Shown here: piece after piece, positions 12,590 to 45,588 of the stretch
Layout of the letters: the number at the start of each line of letters is the position of its first letter
Position numbering within the stretch: position 1 is the first letter of the stretch
From: Candidatus Ventrenecus stercoripullorum
GTDB lineage: Bacteria; Bacillota_I; Bacilli_A; RF39; UBA660
Direction of reading: 5' to 3'
DNA length: 63,859 nucleotides
Assembly: GCA_018712835.1 (NCBI GenBank)
Contig: DVGF01000038.1
Location: 1 to 63,859, forward strand
Position numbers and translations under genes: made by a program
The notes under the pieces: generated by a model
Told to the model about the DNA's origin: nothing
The model's database searches: none
What the model saw: only the letters and a program-made list of their open reading frames with translations

Positions 12590-12673
12590 GGAGGGATAGC
12601 GAAGTGGTCAAACGCGGCAGACTGTAAATCTGTTCCTTCGGGTTCCATGGTTCAAATCCATGTCCCTCCACCA
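12590..12673 (+). tRNA. tRNA-Tyr(GUA)
   Basis: Acceptor GGAGGGA/TCCCTCC, loop CTGTAAA, long variable arm, CCA encoded. Confidence 0.95.
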
Positions 12674-12683
12674 TTATATATAT

Positions 12684-12759
12684 TGCCTCGTAGCCAAGTG
12701 GTAAGGCATCAGACTTTGACTCTGACATTCCGGTGGTTCGAACCCACCCGAGGCAGCCA
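12684..12759 (+). tRNA. tRNA-Gln(UUG)
   Basis: Acceptor TGCCTCG/CGAGGCA, loop CTTTGAC, CCA encoded. Confidence 0.95.
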
Positions 12760-12770
12760 TTCTTATTTTT

Positions 12771-12846
12771 GGTTCGCTAGCTCAGTAGGTAGAGCATTTG
12801 ACTTTTAATCAAAGGGTCTCGGGTTCGAATCCCGAGCGAGCCACCA
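12771..12846 (+). tRNA. tRNA-Lys(UUU)
   Basis: Acceptor GGTTCGC/GCGAGCC, loop CTTTTAA, T-loop TTCGAAT, CCA encoded. Confidence 0.95.
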
Positions 12847-12980: not shown

Positions 12981-13635
12981 ACATCAACGAAATCTAATAA
13001 ACTTGAAAGTTGCTCTTTGATAATTAGATAATGAACCGTATGAAAAACAAGGAGGCAACCTTGGACGGACTATATCTCGTGCTTATTACCTAATAGAGAG
13101 GTCTTTTAGGGGATTGGAGTAGATAATAATAGCAATATTATTGTCGGGACTTACAAAGTAAGAAAAGAGATATGGGTCGTTTAAAGTATTGGTTTATAAG
13201 GCACAGTCCTAATCGTGACAACCACAAACTTCTTTGGTAGAAAACAAAGAGATTCACTTTTCGACTTACTAGGGTGGCTTCCTAGAGAGAAGAAAAGAAT
13301 TAGCCAATAAGTCATTTTGCAGTTGATGTTTAGTGATAAACTATAAGATTAGAAACTGGTTAAAGTAGCACAAATCTGCAGGCCGAAAACGGTATAAGTG
13401 GTAAAGAAACGTTCAATTCGTTTAAGTTTCCTATGCGTGTGAAATTTGGGAGTGCAAGTCTCCTGTAGTGATCGTAGGTAGTTGAAGATTGAAGGTCGCT
13501 CCTTCATGAGGACAACTACTGGCTAGTGGCTGAAATAAAAAATAAACTGGTATTTTAAATGAATGAGAGAATCATCATTATCTAATTATCAAAAAGCAAT
13601 TATCAAAATACAACCGAAACATGGTTGTTTTTTCT
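12981..13635 (+). ncRNA. Large structured non-coding RNA (candidate ROOL-like ornate RNA; family not verified)
   Basis: The track shows no ORF of 60 aa or more on either strand between 12809 and 13671. The unit has its own promoter and terminator. An 18-bp perfect closing helix joins 13017-13034 and 13575-13592. Nested hairpins include 13122-13145 (10 bp, GCAA tetraloop), 13048-13063, 13270-13286, 13407-13423, 13448-13464 and 13478-13519. Confidence 0.65.
13610..13635 (+). terminator. Terminator of the large ncRNA
   Basis: Stem ACAACC/GGTTGT with loop gaaacat, followed by TTTTTT. Confidence 0.7.
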
Positions 13636-36835: not shown

Positions 36836-36912
36836 GTTCTGATAGTTCAGCTGGATAGAACGTTAGCCTCCGGAGCTAAAGGTCGAGGGTTCGAATCCCT
36901 CTCGGAACACCA
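36836..36912 (+). tRNA. tRNA-Arg(CCG)
   Basis: Acceptor GTTCTGA/TCGGAAC, loop CTCCGGA, CCA encoded. Confidence 0.95.
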
Positions 36913-36917
36913 GAATT

Positions 36918-37004
36918 GCAAGAATGGCGGAATCGGTAGACGCGCTACTTTGAGGGGGTAGTGAGCATATGCTCGTGGGAGTTCAAGTCTCCTTTCTTGC
37001 ACCA
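36918..37004 (+). tRNA. tRNA-Leu(GAG)
   Basis: Acceptor GCAAGAA/TTCTTGC, loop TTGAGGG, long variable arm, CCA encoded. Confidence 0.95.
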
Positions 37005-37046
37005 TAAGAATTTAATCTAAATCATTGTGTTTTGGAATCATTTATA

Positions 37047-37113
37047 AATAGAACTTGTGAAAAGTTCTTTTTTATGTTATTATGAATATGTCAAGGAAAC
37101 TTGCATAAAATAA
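37047..37113. repeat. Repeat family R, copy A (terminator hairpin plus -10-like box)
   Basis: GAACTTgtgaaAAGTTC + TTTTTT (37051-37073), then TATGTTATTATGAATATG..TTGCATAAAAT. Related to the copies at 39067, 41756 and 45165. Confidence 0.7.
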
Positions 37114-37117
37114 AAAA

Positions 37118-37203
37118 GGGAACATTCAGTTTTTCCGCGTTGAATGTCTACCTAATTAATGTGCAGACATTTAATTCAATATAGAATTAAGTGTCATTTT
37201 TTT
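37118..37203 (+). ncRNA. Candidate type I antitoxin sRNA, locus 1
   Basis: Starts after TAAAAT (37106-11). 5' hairpin ACATTCA/TGAATGT. 12-bp terminator hairpin 37166-37195 plus T-run. Fully antisense to the 3' UTR and stop codon of the minus-strand toxin ORF. Confidence 0.55.
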
Positions 37204-37286
37204 ATTACAACTATCATAATGATAAGGAGAAATAAAATGATAGCAATGAGCTTAAGAACTTTTATAATAAAAGTCTTAGTTTTCAC
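37194..37286 (-). CDS. Candidate type I toxin, 30-aa hydrophobic peptide MKTKTFIIKVLKLIAIILFLLIIMIVVIKK
   Basis: GTG start 10 nt after GAGGAGG. A single TM helix flanked by Lys residues. TATAAT at 37358-37353 on the minus strand. Homologous copy at 45317..45409. Confidence 0.7.
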   Translation of the reverse strand: MKTKTFIIKVLKLIAIILFLLIIMIVVIKK

Positions 37287-37549
37287 TTTTATCAAACCTC
37301 CTCTCTATAAAGATTAGAGGTAGACACTCAACAACTGATATTCCCTGTGGGAATTATACTATTGAATATATTAAAAAACAAGCGAACAGCTATATATTTA
37401 ACAAAAAAATTTATAACAAAATTTGCTAATGTTAGAGTAGTGTTAAAAAATTGTTCACTATTGTAAAAATGTATAATATATTGTTACTGGACTGGGATGA
37501 GAGTACTAACTTAATCTTAGGTTCACTATTTAAACTCTCAAGACACCAT

Positions 37550-37626
37550 GGGTGATTAGCTCAGTTGGTTAGAGTGCTTGCTTGACGTGCAAGAGGTCAT
37601 AGGTTCGAGTCCTATATCACCCACCA
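37550..37626 (+). tRNA. tRNA-Val(GAC)
   Basis: Acceptor GGGTGAT/ATCACCC, loop TTGACGT, CCA encoded. Confidence 0.95.
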
Positions 37627-37783
37627 GATGAAATGTTACTTGAACTTTATTTTGTGAAAGTTCGGGTTTTAATATATGTTAAAATTGAATTATAATTTTT
37701 ATAGAAATTAAATTGATTTTATCAATTAGAAAAACACTTGTATATTGGTAATATCAATGAATAGTGATAAGAAAGGTGGTTTT

Positions 37784-39066: not shown

Positions 39067-39165
39067 CACCATAAAAAAAATAGTTCGATTAAGCGGACTT
39101 TGAAATAGGGAACTTGGAAAAAGTTCTTTTTTATATTACTATCTGTATGCAAGCAAGTATAATAA
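39067..39165. repeat. Repeat family R, copy B (99-bp perfect direct repeat of 41756..41854)
   Basis: CACCATAAAAAAAATAGTTCGATTAAGCGGACTTTGAAATAGGGAACTTGGAAAAAGTTCTTTTTTATATTACTATCTGTATGCAAGCAAGTATAATAA, identical in both copies. Confidence 0.9.
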
Positions 39166-39365: not shown

Positions 39366-41126
39366 ATGGATATAAGAATTGATGAAACTATCGATAAAGC
39401 TCCATATTATAAAAAAATTTCAGATGATAAAGTTATAAATATTACTGGTGAAGGTGGAAGCGGAAAATCTACAATAGCAAGTAAATATAAAAAAGATGAT
39501 AATTATATAGTAGTAGATTATGATTTGATTATGTTAAATCCAGAAGAAGGAACAATAGAATATGAACTAAGACAAATGTTATTAAATAAATATGGTGAAG
39601 TATTATTTAAAGGTATTAATGAACTTGGACTGGATAAAGTAAAAGAAAATTTTACAACCATGTATACAGAAATCATTAATTATCTTTCAAAGAAAGAAAC
39701 AAACAAAACAATTGTTTTAGATGGCTCACAGTTACGATTTATTAATGATGTACAAGTGATTAAAGGAGAAGTCTTTGTTTTAAGACCATCTATACAAACT
39801 TGTATTTCTCAATCTGTTAAAAGATACATTCAAAAAAATCCACAAGCAACTATCGAACAAATTCAAGAATATACCCAAAAAAGAACAAATATACTATATC
39901 AATTAAATCCACTGATGAATGAATTATTGATTAAAGTATCTACGCTTCCAGAAGTGGAAAAAAAAAGAGCTGAATTATTTAATCAAAACTTAAATACTAT
40001 ATTTTCAGATGAAATAATTTATAATATTTTAAATAGAATAAGTGAAAATGAAGATTATAAAAATCCGATTACAAAAGAGCAATTTTTGCAATCAATAAAC
40101 CAAAAGGGATACAATATTATAACAACTCATAAAAAACTAGAAAATGAATTAGAACAAAAACTAAAAAGTTATGCTTACAATAAAAGTCAATTTCAACCTG
40201 ATTGTTTATATGAATATGCGGCATACATAATAACATTGATAAAGGAAGATTATAAAACATCTATAAAACCTGAAGCAATAGAACGATTAGAAGATTTGAT
40301 AACACAAAAGAAAATTGTACTTTGCAAAAAAGAACAAGGCACTGCTCATACAGATGGTAGTATCGAAATACCTTGGGCCAATCCGGCTGATCCGTTATTT
40401 ATAAGAAATGTTCGATATAGTTTAGATACCTTATTGCACGAGATATTTCATCAAACACATAGATACAGAGTTGGTGAGGATTTGAATATTATAGTAAACG
40501 AAAAAGAAGTAGTAGCAAAAAACTTTGGAGGCTATTTGTTTGAAGAAGGTCTTACTGATAAATGTACCGTTGATTTTGCAAGAAAGCATCAATTGTCTTG
40601 TAGTCCATTTTTTGAATATCATATCTATACTCAATTAGTAGCTGCTGTTGAAAAACAATTGGGCGTTACAAATGAATACTTGTTTGATAAGGATTATCGG
40701 CAAATATTTAATAAAATAGATCCAACAGGTCAAATGCTAGAACATTATCGTTTTGCGGAGCTATCGCGATATGCTTCGACAGCAAAGAAAAGAAAAGCCA
40801 AGGTAGAATTTGTGTTTAACGGAAAAAAATATGAAGCACAAGAATTTCCTTCATTAAAACAAGAAATAAAATCCCAGAACGCAATTATTAACAATGAGGA
40901 GCAAAAAAAATATTTTGACCAAAGAAGTGAAATTGAAATCCAAATTGCAGAACAAATAAGAATAAAAAATCAGGCAATAGCTCAACAAAAGCAGAAAAAG
41001 CCAAAAATGTTAGTGAAAACCAGCGCAACTTCTTCTCTTACAAGTAAGGGCTATATTAATGGAGTGATTTTATCTTTTATTGTAAGTGGTATGTTAGCAA
41101 TGATAATCTATTTTCTTTTTAAGTAA
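39366..41126 (+). CDS. Multidomain protein: P-loop NTPase/kinase-like N-terminus, zincin (HExxH..ExxxD) middle, coiled coil, C-terminal TM anchor
   Basis: INITGEGGSGKSTIASKY (Walker A). LLHEIFHQTH plus FEEGLTD about 30 aa later. C-terminal GVILSFIVSGMLAMIIYFLF. RBS AGGAGG. Confidence 0.7.
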   Translation: MDIRIDETIDKAPYYKKISDDKVINITGEGGSGKSTIASKYKKDDNYIVVDYDLIMLNPEEGTIEYELRQMLLNKYGEVLFKGINELGLDKVKENFTTMYTEIINYLSKKETNKTIVLDGSQLRFINDVQVIKGEVFVLRPSIQTCISQSVKRYIQKNPQATIEQIQEYTQKRTNILYQLNPLMNELLIKVSTLPEVEKKRAELFNQNLNTIFSDEIIYNILNRISENEDYKNPITKEQFLQSINQKGYNIITTHKKLENELEQKLKSYAYNKSQFQPDCLYEYAAYIITLIKEDYKTSIKPEAIERLEDLITQKKIVLCKKEQGTAHTDGSIEIPWANPADPLFIRNVRYSLDTLLHEIFHQTHRYRVGEDLNIIVNEKEVVAKNFGGYLFEEGLTDKCTVDFARKHQLSCSPFFEYHIYTQLVAAVEKQLGVTNEYLFDKDYRQIFNKIDPTGQMLEHYRFAELSRYASTAKKRKAKVEFVFNGKKYEAQEFPSLKQEIKSQNAIINNEEQKKYFDQRSEIEIQIAEQIRIKNQAIAQQKQKKPKMLVKTSATSSLTSKGYINGVILSFIVSGMLAMIIYFLFK

Positions 41127-41136
41127 GGAGGAACTA

Positions 41137-41736
41137 ATGTATAATATTGAAAATATAAAAGGTGAAATATTAGAAATCTTTGCAGAAAAACAAAATTACG
41201 ATGAAAAATATAATAGTTTAATGTTTGACTTTATTACTAAAGCTTATGAGCTTGTTGAGTTATCAGAAGACTTATATCAAGTAGAACATACAATAAAACT
41301 AAATCAAATATCATTAAAAGATTATATTTTAAATTCAAAGATATGTAATTATTTGAAAGACAATAATTTTAATAATTACTCGATTGAAGATTTAAAGGAA
41401 TATATGCAAAAATATGAAAATCAAAATCCTTCAGATATGATTTCTTATAAATTAGCTTTAGAATTGTACGAAAAATTAGAAGAAATAAAAGATATAGAAA
41501 AGTCAAAAATCGATTATGAAATAAGTCGAATGGGTAATTTATTAGACAATGTTAGTAAAATTGAAAGTGTTACCAAAGATAAATATCAAGCGCTATATAA
41601 TGATTTATTGCAACAAGTTAAAGTAAAATATTTAGATAATAATCTTATTGATGATAAGACAAATAATTATGTTATGAAAATATTAAACGACATATTTAAT
41701 TATTATTTATATGGAAATAAAGAAATTCCATTGTGA
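41137..41736 (+). CDS. Hypothetical acidic helical protein (199 aa), operon partner of 39366..41126
   Basis: RBS AAGGAGG, 10-nt gap after the upstream stop. No motif recognised. Confidence 0.65.
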   Translation: MYNIENIKGEILEIFAEKQNYDEKYNSLMFDFITKAYELVELSEDLYQVEHTIKLNQISLKDYILNSKICNYLKDNNFNNYSIEDLKEYMQKYENQNPSDMISYKLALELYEKLEEIKDIEKSKIDYEISRMGNLLDNVSKIESVTKDKYQALYNDLLQQVKVKYLDNNLIDDKTNNYVMKILNDIFNYYLYGNKEIPL

Positions 41737-41755: not shown

Positions 41756-41854
41756 CACCATAAAAAAAATAGTTCGATTAAGCGGACTTTGAAATAGGGA
41801 ACTTGGAAAAAGTTCTTTTTTATATTACTATCTGTATGCAAGCAAGTATAATAA
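41756..41854. repeat. Repeat family R, copy C (99-bp perfect direct repeat of 39067..39165)
   Basis: Identical 99-mer, including the GAACTTggaaaAAGTTC + T-run hairpin and TATAAT. Confidence 0.9.
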
Positions 41855-42020
41855 AAAAAGAAAAATACCCAACAATTAGTATTGCCTGTATACATTATCT
41901 GTATAAACCAAAAGAGAATTTAAAAACTATTGAAATATTTATAACTGTAATAAAGTATCATTAATAGATAGATTATATTTAGAAAAAATAGTATAATGAA
42001 GCTAGAAACGAGGTGTAATA

Positions 42021-45135: not shown

Positions 45136-45164
45136 AGTGACATAAAATAATTAGTTTTGTAACT

Positions 45165-45238
45165 TTAAGGAACTTGAAAAAAGCTCATTTTTATGCTACT
45201 ATTTGTATGAAAGCAAGAAACCTTGCGTATAATAAAAA
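45165..45238. repeat. Repeat family R, copy D (degenerate hairpin plus TATAAT)
   Basis: GGAACTTGAAAAAAGCTCATTTTTATGCTACTATTTGTATGAAAGCAAG..GCGTATAATAAAAAAAG aligns with copies A to C. Confidence 0.65.
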
Positions 45239-45239
45239 A

Positions 45240-45326
45240 AGAGGAACATTTGATTTCGCAAGTGAATGTCGCCTCTAAAATATTAGTGCTGACACTCAAT
45301 CAATGCTGAAAGAGTGTCATATTTTT
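45240..45326 (+). ncRNA. Candidate type I antitoxin sRNA, locus 2
   Basis: Starts after TATAAT (45228-33). Terminator hairpin GACACTC/GAGTGTC (45291-45318) plus T-run. Antisense to the 3' UTR and stop codon of toxin 2. Confidence 0.55.
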
Positions 45327-45409
45327 ATTGCTATTACCAATAAGGTAAGGAGTAATAAAATGATAGCAATAAGACGGAGGACTTTTATAATAAAAGTTCT
45401 TTTCTTCAT
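45317..45409 (-). CDS. Candidate type I toxin, 30-aa peptide MKKRTFIIKVLRLIAIILLLLTLLVIAIKI
   Basis: ATG 5 nt after AAAGGAGGG. TATAAT at 45477-45472 on the minus strand. Homologous to the 37194..37286 peptide. Confidence 0.7.
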   Translation of the reverse strand: MKKRTFIIKVLRLIAIILLLLTLLVIAIKI

Positions 45410-45588
45410 TGTATCCCTCCTTTCTTTCTCAAGATTGGAGGACGACACTCACATCAAATGTTCCGAGTAAAATTATATAATAATTGAATGATCAAAACAA
45501 GCAAATTGGTAAAGTTTTGATAAAAATTAGTACCAATGATATCATTTCAATACCAAAATATGTTAAGATATAGTCATAAGGGAAGGTT

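Follow-up and report, generated by a model that had tools for sequence, protein, structure and literature searches.

A candidate type I toxin-antitoxin family with an end-closed toxin mRNA on the chromosomes of uncultured gut Bacilli

A small locus in contig DVGF01000038.1 (assembly GCA_018712835.1) of Candidatus Ventrenecus stercoripullorum is probably a chromosomal type I toxin-antitoxin module of the Gram-positive kind, with toxin mRNA and antisense RNA overlapping at their 3' ends, and belongs to a family not described before; from sequence comparisons we place the probability of this reading at about 0.75. The whole 63,859-nt contig is referred to as the window, and coordinates are window positions. 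Type I toxins are difficult to detect: they are tiny, seldom annotated and without shared sequence. The original prediction for this DNA proposed a type I-like module whose two RNAs converge and overlap at the 3' ends, like those of txpA/RatA and bsrG/SR4 in Bacillus subtilis, and the comparative evidence supports it. Every motif that it named was found where it had been placed, and to these can be added a -35 box, TTGTTT, exactly 17 nt upstream of the toxin gene's TATAAT. The features of the locus are collected in Table 1.

The open reading frame (ORF) on the minus strand encodes a peptide of 30 amino acids (aa) with a grand average of hydropathy of 1.95 and a net charge of +6, and its predicted structure is a single continuous helix spanning residues 2-29 (predicted local distance difference test score 90.8). 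The small (<60 aa) hydrophobic ORF with a predicted transmembrane helix that characterizes the type I class is thus present. In homologous loci, all intact copies are 30-31 aa long, keep the frame and follow the pattern MKTKTFIIKVLKLI[A/P]IILF...IKK. The pooled ratio of nonsynonymous to synonymous change (pN/pS) was 0.34 in the toxin frame, the lowest of the six, while the other five frames yielded values of 0.60-2.05. Judged by these substitutions, the 30-31-aa ORF is a coding sequence under purifying selection. The original prediction had staked itself on conservation of the ORF among homologous copies, and such conservation is what we found.

Searches with the peptide gave no match in Pfam or NCBIfam at E<=10, nor any among PHROGs and PDB sequences. 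In these same libraries there was no match to Fst/Ldr, Hok, Ibs, TisB, PepA1/SprA1, PepG1 or AapA, families that these libraries include; the presence of PepG1 in NCBIfam was shown by search. BLASTP against BsrG and BsrE yielded no alignment at E<=100. Used as positive controls, BsrG and BsrE scored 34.5 and 47.9 bits on Pfam Hol_Tox, and both also matched NCBIfam ComI. The BsrG control sequence was verified in SPbeta; the one used for BsrE shares 92% identity across 26 aa with plasmid genes of Bacillus whose annotation is holin-like toxin. By these comparisons the window peptide is outside the Hol_Tox group (Pfam PF16935: TxpA, BsrG, BsrE, BsrH and ComI-like), and the remark in the original prediction that it is unlike known toxins was borne out in Pfam, NCBIfam, PDB and BLASTP. 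An exhaustive scan of 1.84 billion protein cluster representatives returned two marginal, near-identical matches, both of them mis-called ORFs containing the same peptide.

Relatives of the module were sought with a back-translated pattern scan of one genome per species. This identified at least 23 loci in other genomes, all of them metagenome-assembled genomes from the gut, on chromosomal contigs. Most of these loci carry the labels uncultured Bacilli or "Tenericutes", three come from Candidatus Caccenecus, Onthousia and Scybalousia, and two fragmentary matches are labelled otherwise (Muribaculaceae and Clostridia). A nucleotide profile of the module revealed extra, often tandem copies within the 6-kb loci, two in each of L004, L005, L009, L012, L020 and L022 and three in L013. 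Several copies have decayed: the ORF of L008 is truncated and its 3' part replaced, the 3' part of L007 is likewise replaced, and L021 and L022 contain frameshifts. Chromosomal type I loci are typically multiple, arranged in tandem and often inactivated (PMC5416894; PMC8594479). The flanking genes differ between loci, with no conserved neighbour. Nothing was found when viral contigs, plasmid DNA and phage DNA were searched for the module, and a tblastn search of plasmids with the peptide was also empty, which is weak evidence since low-complexity filtering may mask the peptide. No prior description was found in literature on the peptide motif, on type I systems of Erysipelotrichaceae or Mollicutes, or on small-protein families of the gut.

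The predicted toxin mRNA is closed upon itself. In the minimum-energy fold, the first 29 nt are paired with about 35 nt just before the U-tract so that the whole 242-nt molecule is closed, with a free energy of -69.4 kcal/mol compared with -40.1 +/- 4.1 kcal/mol for shuffled sequences (z -7.1, 0 of 200 shuffles as good). The original prediction described a perfect 14-bp pairing of 37332-37319 with 37152-37139; this pairing exists, as the core of a longer helix of about 29 bp (37346-37318 with 37153-37117). The mRNA of a second copy in the window, 72% identical to the first over 290 nt, is also predicted to be closed end to end, using partly different nucleotides (-78.9 kcal/mol, z -8.3). When the homologous copies were folded individually, at least 21 of the first 30 nt were paired with the 3' end in 18 of 22 cases, the exceptions being decayed copies, such as L007 and L008 in which the closing helix is lost, or the most divergent ones. 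RNAalifold recovered the helix without guidance from 23 transcripts.

To quantify the conservation of the helix, we used the 17 pairs that are in register in the MAFFT alignment. Of their cells, 97.2% were standard pairs, as against 34-56% when the partner was slid by 1-3 columns, and the covariation score was 0.162 compared with 0.114 +/- 0.008 in shuffled alignments, none of 500 reaching the observed value. The formal count was restricted to these pairs, and covariation is thereby understated, because bulges in some subfamilies put the MAFFT arms out of register; further compensatory sets could be read by eye where bulges shift the register (CAGUU:AACUG, UUGAU:AUCAA and UUGUU:GACAA).

The closing helix contains 1-5 G-U pairs per copy, and because of these it is more stable on the toxin strand. 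In all 18 of 18 copies the arms pair better on this strand than do their complements on the other (mean -33.7 versus -27.5 kcal/mol), and an inverted repeat acting at the DNA level is therefore excluded. The original prediction had argued from a single A-C mismatch that the minus-strand RNA is the one that folds, an argument that now extends from one pair to every copy compared. On the minus strand of the window copy, a hairpin of ACATTCA (37147-37141) and TGAATGT (37128-37122) is followed by the T-run at 37117-37107. A local terminator hairpin formed by the halves of the 3' arm has a stability of -6 to -13.5 kcal/mol in every copy, and a weak local 5' hairpin is possible in each, whereas the 5'-3' helix, at -24 to -40 kcal/mol, is far more stable than the local folds. 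The terminator and the closing helix are mutually exclusive because the former is made from the two halves of the 3' arm.

Inside the closure, the Shine-Dalgarno (SD) sequence appears to be sequestered. Pairing of the SD with the upstream CCTCT, as put forward in the original prediction, is supported by the predicted folds of the window copies and their homologues, and CCUC of this anti-SD is kept in every copy except one. Averaged across copies, the predicted probability that the SD is unpaired decreased from 0.17 in the free mRNA to 0.08 when the 3' untranslated region (UTR) was masked, and pairing between anti-SD and SD increased from 0.49 to 0.76, with a change from 0.18 to 1.00 for the window copy W1. 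In the free mRNA, the anti-SD was paired with the AGG/GAGG motif of the 3' UTR at a value of 0.42. A folded toxin mRNA restraining its own translation, another hallmark of the type I class, is thus predicted. In the window copy, CUCCUU on the sense strand of the toxin ORF is another predicted partner of the SD. The hexamers TTGTTT and TATAAT of the toxin promoter and their 17-nt spacing recur in the homologues and in the second window copy, the latter with another spacer sequence. A TTG start, which would give 33 aa, was ruled out for want of conservation and because a single nucleotide separates it from the SD.

Opposite the toxin gene, a promoter scan picked a site of the sigma-70 type with an extended -10 box at 37055-37083 (+), and the equivalent site in the second copy. 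Across 21 aligned copies, TTG..A and TATGnTAnnAT never vary and their spacing is always 17 nt, while the spacer sequence is free to vary; the -35 box is a perfect TTGACA in many copies. Conserved hexamers at fixed spacing around a variable spacer are the signature that a working promoter would be expected to leave. The predicted antisense RNA begins around 37088-37091, at the base of a small hairpin in which the inner stem varies between copies with pairing kept. Its three hairpins, the 5' one (37088-37106), a middle one complementary to the 3' arm and the terminator, give a fold with z -3.5 (z -4.5 in the second copy), and the RNA would cover the last ~100 nt of the toxin mRNA, that is, the 3' UTR and the last four codons, with perfect complementarity. 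The 12-bp terminator hairpin overlapping the toxin stop codon, which was part of the original prediction, was found at 37166-37195 with the agreement of a terminator scan. This hairpin is more stable on the antisense strand in 18 of 24 copies, and in every copy a T-tract that the C-terminal Lys codons supply comes after it. The opposite strand asymmetries of the closing helix and of the terminator hairpin are as would be expected if both strands make functional RNAs. At the sequence level, the locus hence contains an antisense gene that has its own promoter and terminator and is complementary to the toxin mRNA.

The original prediction had this RNA, of about 86 nt, start from the TAAAAT box at 37106-11. 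The box is present and the predicted antisense RNA is convergent and 3'-overlapping as proposed, but the choice of promoter and the length call for correction. The -35 position of the box is occupied by TGAATA or TGTATA, and in two copies (W2 and L022a) the spacing is altered by a 3-nt insertion. TAAAAT was ruled out as the main antisense promoter on account of this poor -35 box and unkept spacing; it may at most provide a second antisense start. A start near 37088 is more likely than one from TAAAAT, and with 37055-37083 as the promoter the predicted RNA is ~118 nt long and gains an extra 5' hairpin. None of the Rfam covariance models scored at its gathering threshold on either strand of the locus, and chance-level matches were all that appeared at E<=10 over 36900-37650.

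Table 1. Predicted features of the studied module and of the second copy in the window.
Feature	Position	Strand	Details
Toxin promoter	37353-37381	-	-35 TTGTTT 37381-37376, 17-nt spacer, -10 TATAAT 37358-37353; predicted start A37346
Predicted toxin mRNA	37107-37346	-	~240 nt; long-range 5'-3' helix closes the ends
5' arm of closing helix, AGGGAAUAUCAGUUGUUGAGUGUCUACCU	37318-37346	-	counterpart of the 5' arm of bsrG P1
Anti-SD, CCUCU	37316-37320	-	possible partners are the SD and AGG/GAGG in the 3' UTR, one at a time
SD region, AGAGAGGAGG	37297-37306	-	GGAGG at 37301-37297
Toxin ORF, MKTKTFIIKVLKLIAIILFLLIIMIVVIKK	37194-37286	-	GTG at 37286, 30 codons, stop TGA 37196-37194
3' arm of closing helix	37117-37153	-	its halves can alternatively pair together as a local terminator hairpin before the U-tract
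U-tract of toxin terminator, UUUUUUAUUUU	37107-37117	-	TTTATTTTATG nearly invariant among copies
Antisense (antitoxin) promoter	37055-37083	+	-35 TTGTGA 37055-60, 17-nt spacer, TG 37075-76, -10 TATTAT 37078-83
Predicted antisense RNA	37088-37205	+	~118 nt, three hairpins; ends predicted
12-bp hairpin over toxin stop codon, antisense terminator	37166-37195	+	followed by T7 (37197-37203); terminator-like in scan
TAAAAT, alternative -10 box	37106-37111	+	invariant in the family; poor -35; complement of the toxin U-tract
Second complete module	45164-45531	-	module-profile score 279 bits
Promoter of second copy	TTGTTT 45500-45495, TATAAT 45477-45472	-	spacer sequence other than in the studied copy
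ORF of second copy, MKKRTFIIKVLRLIAIILLLLTLLVIAIKI	45317-45409	-	ATG start, 30 aa, hairpin over stop codon
Antisense promoter of second copy	TTGAAA 45174-79, TACTAT 45197-202	+	17-nt spacing
Predicted antisense RNA of second copy	~45207-45330	+	z -4.5

Among systems already studied, the closest counterpart in architecture is bsrG/SR4 from the B. subtilis prophage SPbeta. In the bsrG mRNA, nt 1-35 pair with nt 232-262 to form helix P1, as probed experimentally (PMC3834814), the SD lies in a 4-bp helix and the stop codon in stem-loop SL3 (PMC3834814; PMC5848175). The terminator loop of SR4 meets SL3 first and pairing then reaches the 3' arm of P1; nt 1-33 become unpaired, the SD helix lengthens from 4 to 8 bp and the duplex is cut by RNase III (PMC3834814; PMC5848175). 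When the bsrG mRNA was folded as a control by the same procedure, P1 and the terminator were recovered (z -5.9). The present module is alike in its predicted converging RNAs with 3'-end overlap, in two promoters of the sigma-A type, in a long 5'-3' closure (P1 in bsrG, nt 1-29 with about nt 194-230 here), in an SD placed in a short helix just inside it, and in a stop codon held in a hairpin that faces the terminator loop of the antitoxin. Its predicted antitoxin likewise has a 5' hairpin outside the region of complementarity, then a linker rich in A, hairpins that match the 3' arm, and lastly a terminator. Release of the 5' arm and strengthening of the SD helix have been measured for SR4 and are predicted here. 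The two elements that define the bsrG/SR4 type, a closing helix whose 3' arm lies in the antitoxin target and a stop-codon hairpin, are accordingly both found.

The two loci also share a 15-mer, TTTTTATTTTATGCA, at the junction of toxin U-tract and antitoxin 5' hairpin (window 37102-37116, minus strand; 632-646 in L024, the bsrG/SR4 locus of an SPbeta-like phage), and CATAAAATAAA is invariant at this junction in the present family. The shared 15-mer may be a functional antitoxin motif or a trace of common ancestry. A hidden Markov model of the module found this 15-nt exact match alone in the bsrG locus, at E 0.22; the overall profile match is not significant, and the resemblance may reflect either deep homology or convergence. 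The peptides have no protein similarity, BsrG matching Hol_Tox and the window peptide not. Basic residues lie at the N-terminus of the present one (MKTKT..K..K), which also closes with KK, while in BsrG they are confined to the tail. With RNAs of ~240 and 118 nt against 294 and 180 nt and a peptide of 30 against 38 aa, the module is smaller. Its toxin terminator is built into the 3' arm with no separate hairpin, and it lies outside any recognisable prophage.

The other type I toxins of B. subtilis (bsrE/SR5, bsrH/as-bsrH, txpA/RatA and yonT/SR6) have 29-59 aa, BsrE having 30 aa, and the bsrE mRNA and SR5 fold like bsrG mRNA and SR4 (PMC6562991). Extended -10 promoters are known in SR6 and yonT (PMC5848175), and all Gram-positive families have 3'-overlapping antisense RNAs (PMC8594479). 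The toxins of bsrE, bsrH, txpA and yonT belong to the Hol_Tox group or to YonT, none of which the window peptide matches, and such systems occur in Bacillus prophage-like elements and in plasmids of Bacillus and Lactobacillales, whereas the present family resides on chromosomal contigs of uncultured gut Bacilli. The hok/Sok system from plasmid R1 and aapA1/IsoA1 of Helicobacter pylori resemble it in a stable, poorly translated mRNA with 5'-3' pairing and a sequestered SD (PMC5416894). AapA1 has 30 aa, and chromosomal copies of hok and aapA1 are multiple and often inactivated (PMC5416894). Unlike here, where the antisense RNA targets the 3' arm, the antisense RNAs of these two systems hit the 5' region and activation requires 3' trimming; they also have Gram-negative hosts and no sequence similarity to the module. 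The fst/RNAII system (pAD1 par of Enterococcus faecalis) shares a Gram-positive host, convergent transcripts, a membrane toxin of ~33 aa and a translation-limiting 5' structure, but has one shared bidirectional terminator and an interaction via 5' direct repeats outside the overlap. RNAII blocks translation without causing decay (PMC3834814).

If the locus is a type I module, it would operate as follows. The sigma-A type promoter would yield an mRNA of ~240 nt for a basic, hydrophobic single-helix peptide, and this mRNA would be closed by its ends, its SD held by the CCUC anti-SD. The convergent promoter is placed to make an RNA of ~118 nt that would match the final four codons and the 3' UTR of the toxin message. 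By analogy with bsrG/SR4, the antisense terminator loop (37166-37195) would first contact the complementary loop at the toxin stop codon, after which the duplex would spread over the 3' arm of the closing helix, become a substrate of RNase III and set the 5' arm free. The freed anti-SD would then lock the SD more firmly, and the toxin message would be silenced and degraded. On loss of the antisense RNA, again by analogy, the closed and stable mRNA would permit some translation, and the peptide would enter the membrane and harm the cell.

A more specific version of the model, which we regard as tentative and rather doubtful, is that the module is a bsrG/SR4-like RNA chassis that carries an unrelated toxin and has been streamlined so that the 3' arm doubles as intrinsic terminator. 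The terminator hairpin would then form first during transcription and later dissolve into the 5'-3' helix, GAGG of the 3' UTR would be an SD mimic that keeps the anti-SD off the real SD, and the antitoxin RNA, a near-copy of the toxin leader, would remove this mimic.

Three other explanations of the locus were weighed. The gene might encode a harmless small membrane protein, a regulator or a subunit, controlled by a cis-antisense RNA and a structured mRNA but with no toxin-antitoxin behaviour, which we consider unlikely. Purifying selection on a peptide with one transmembrane helix would fit many benign small membrane proteins, as would the lack of similarity to proven toxins and a chromosomal housekeeping context that is neither plasmid nor prophage. 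However, the family combines tandem and multiple copies, an ORF that has repeatedly decayed with the RNA features kept (L021, L008 and L022), SD sequestration, a closed mRNA and a dedicated strong convergent promoter, and this combination is usual for type I loci but not for small housekeeping proteins. The flanks differ from locus to locus and leave no conserved neighbour to serve.

It is very improbable that the locus is a non-coding repeat, such as a miniature inverted-repeat transposable element (MITE) with terminal inverted repeats or a terminator/promoter cassette, in which the ORF and the folds are incidental. Its size of ~370 bp, its multiple copies and the inverted repeats at the transcript ends could be read this way, and the promoter-terminator end occurs alone at 39104-39157 and 41794-41860. 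Yet the frame, peptide length and start and stop positions are conserved with an excess of synonymous change (pN/pS 0.34), and in 18 of 18 copies the inverted repeat includes G-U pairs, which DNA or the other strand would turn into A-C mismatches. The window copies, at 72% identity, are also unlike recently transposed MITEs, and no target-site duplications were seen. Almost no credence is due to the idea that the real gene is the plus-strand frame at 37159-37317 (52 aa), which also reads RTFIIKVL and contains an internal AAGGAG-N8-ATG. This frame is open across the toxin ORF in most homologues, and an SD-like AAGGAG with ATG occurs in both window copies, at 37224-37239 in the studied one, where it opens the stretches 37224-37317 and 45347-45440 (plus strand). 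The frame is open, however, because the sense peptide lacks Tyr, His and Gln, and RTFIIKV is shared by both strands because the ORF contains the palindrome ACTTTTATtATAAAAGT. Its pN/pS is 0.60 as against 0.34 in the sense frame. Homologues do not preserve where it starts or ends, nor how long it is, and the L012-L020 group has neither the SD-like motif nor the ATG. The conserved terminator of the antisense RNA comes first, with this frame downstream of it.

Several observations count against a type I module. Both transcripts and the toxin role are predictions, and no proven toxin was found to resemble the peptide. Since a single narrow lineage supplies the homologues, the copies do not count as independent cases. 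With such strong conservation of the arms and with related genomes, the covariation is supporting rather than overwhelming; it is limited, with changes on both sides in just 2 of the 17 in-register pairs, and the compensatory sets read by eye lie in register-shifted stretches. For the window copy and its close relatives the predicted SD switch stands out clearly, but it is weak or absent in several others, and the two candidate -10 boxes make the antisense start ambiguous. Finally, the studied copy itself may be an attenuated allele: its GTG start (37284-37286, minus strand) is unique among about 30 copies, the others having ATG, and an AG/GA swap relative to its closest relative, L002, gives it a spacing of 10 nt between SD and start.

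Two divergent paralogues, at L013 4532-4763 and L020 1194-1426 (+), adjoin standard copies. Their peptide, (V)KMKTFILKLLKSVALVVISLTLLIVAIKI, is much changed, and they keep the leader, the arms of the closing helix and the antisense promoter. The RNA frame seems, in these alignments, to evolve more slowly than the peptide.

In the window, the module is flanked by genes for tRNA-Leu(gag) (36918-37004, +) and tRNA-Val(gac) (37550-37626, +), and the surrounding genes are chromosomal housekeeping genes (an RseP-type protease, tRNAs and tryptophanyl-tRNA synthetase) with no recognisable prophage. Five loci have a tRNA gene on the strand of the antisense promoter and upstream of it, within ~70 nt in four of them, and the tRNAs vary (Leu-gag, Leu-caa, Met, Arg-tct and Arg-ccg at window 36918-37004, L002 3776-3862, L011 3279-3355, L018 3309-3385 and L021 3296-3372). 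Such adjacency may point to insertion beside the 3' ends of tRNAs or to a terminator used in common.

Parts of the module also recur within the window. A block consisting of a hairpin (GAACTTG..AAGTTC), a T-run and TTGnnA-17-TAyTAT occurs four times within 8 kb on the plus strand (37051-37090, 39110-39149, 41799-41838 and 45170-45209), each time directly after the end of a plus-strand gene. Two of the four blocks are the antisense promoters of the toxin modules and the other two have no toxin ORF; the solo blocks (39104-39157 and 41794-41860) match just the last ~55-75 positions of the module profile, which represent its antisense-promoter end. They could be either remnants or a shared terminator/promoter cassette. 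A perfect 99-nt direct repeat (39067-39165 and 41756-41854, +) brackets a 2.6-kb cassette of two ORFs, the first of which (39366-41126, 586 aa) has a weak P-loop AAA_22/VakA match and the second (41137-41736, 199 aa) no match. The repeat suggests a recent insertion or duplication, possibly of a defence-type cassette. Elsewhere, a full-length ROOL RNA is located at 13012-13594 (+), just downstream of a tRNA cluster at 12590-12846 (Rfam RF03087, 180.7 bits versus a gathering score of 99.1).

No new principle is revealed by these findings. As a type I module, the locus would add a well-delimited family that comes with its promoters, the two predicted RNAs and a conserved fold, and that belongs to the poorly known, uncultured small-genome Bacilli of the gut. 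The bsrG/SR4 design, a self-closed mRNA with an antisense RNA on its 3' arm, would extend far beyond the prophages of Bacillus and carry a different toxin there, and the module, being compact (~240 plus ~118 nt), would be a convenient system for the control of 5' translation by a 3'-bound antisense RNA. If it is indeed a bsrG/SR4-like scaffold with an unrelated toxin, type I RNA scaffolds would have been exchanged with different toxins across distant Bacilli, and the locus would offer a minimal natural model of antisense translation control exerted from the far end of the message.

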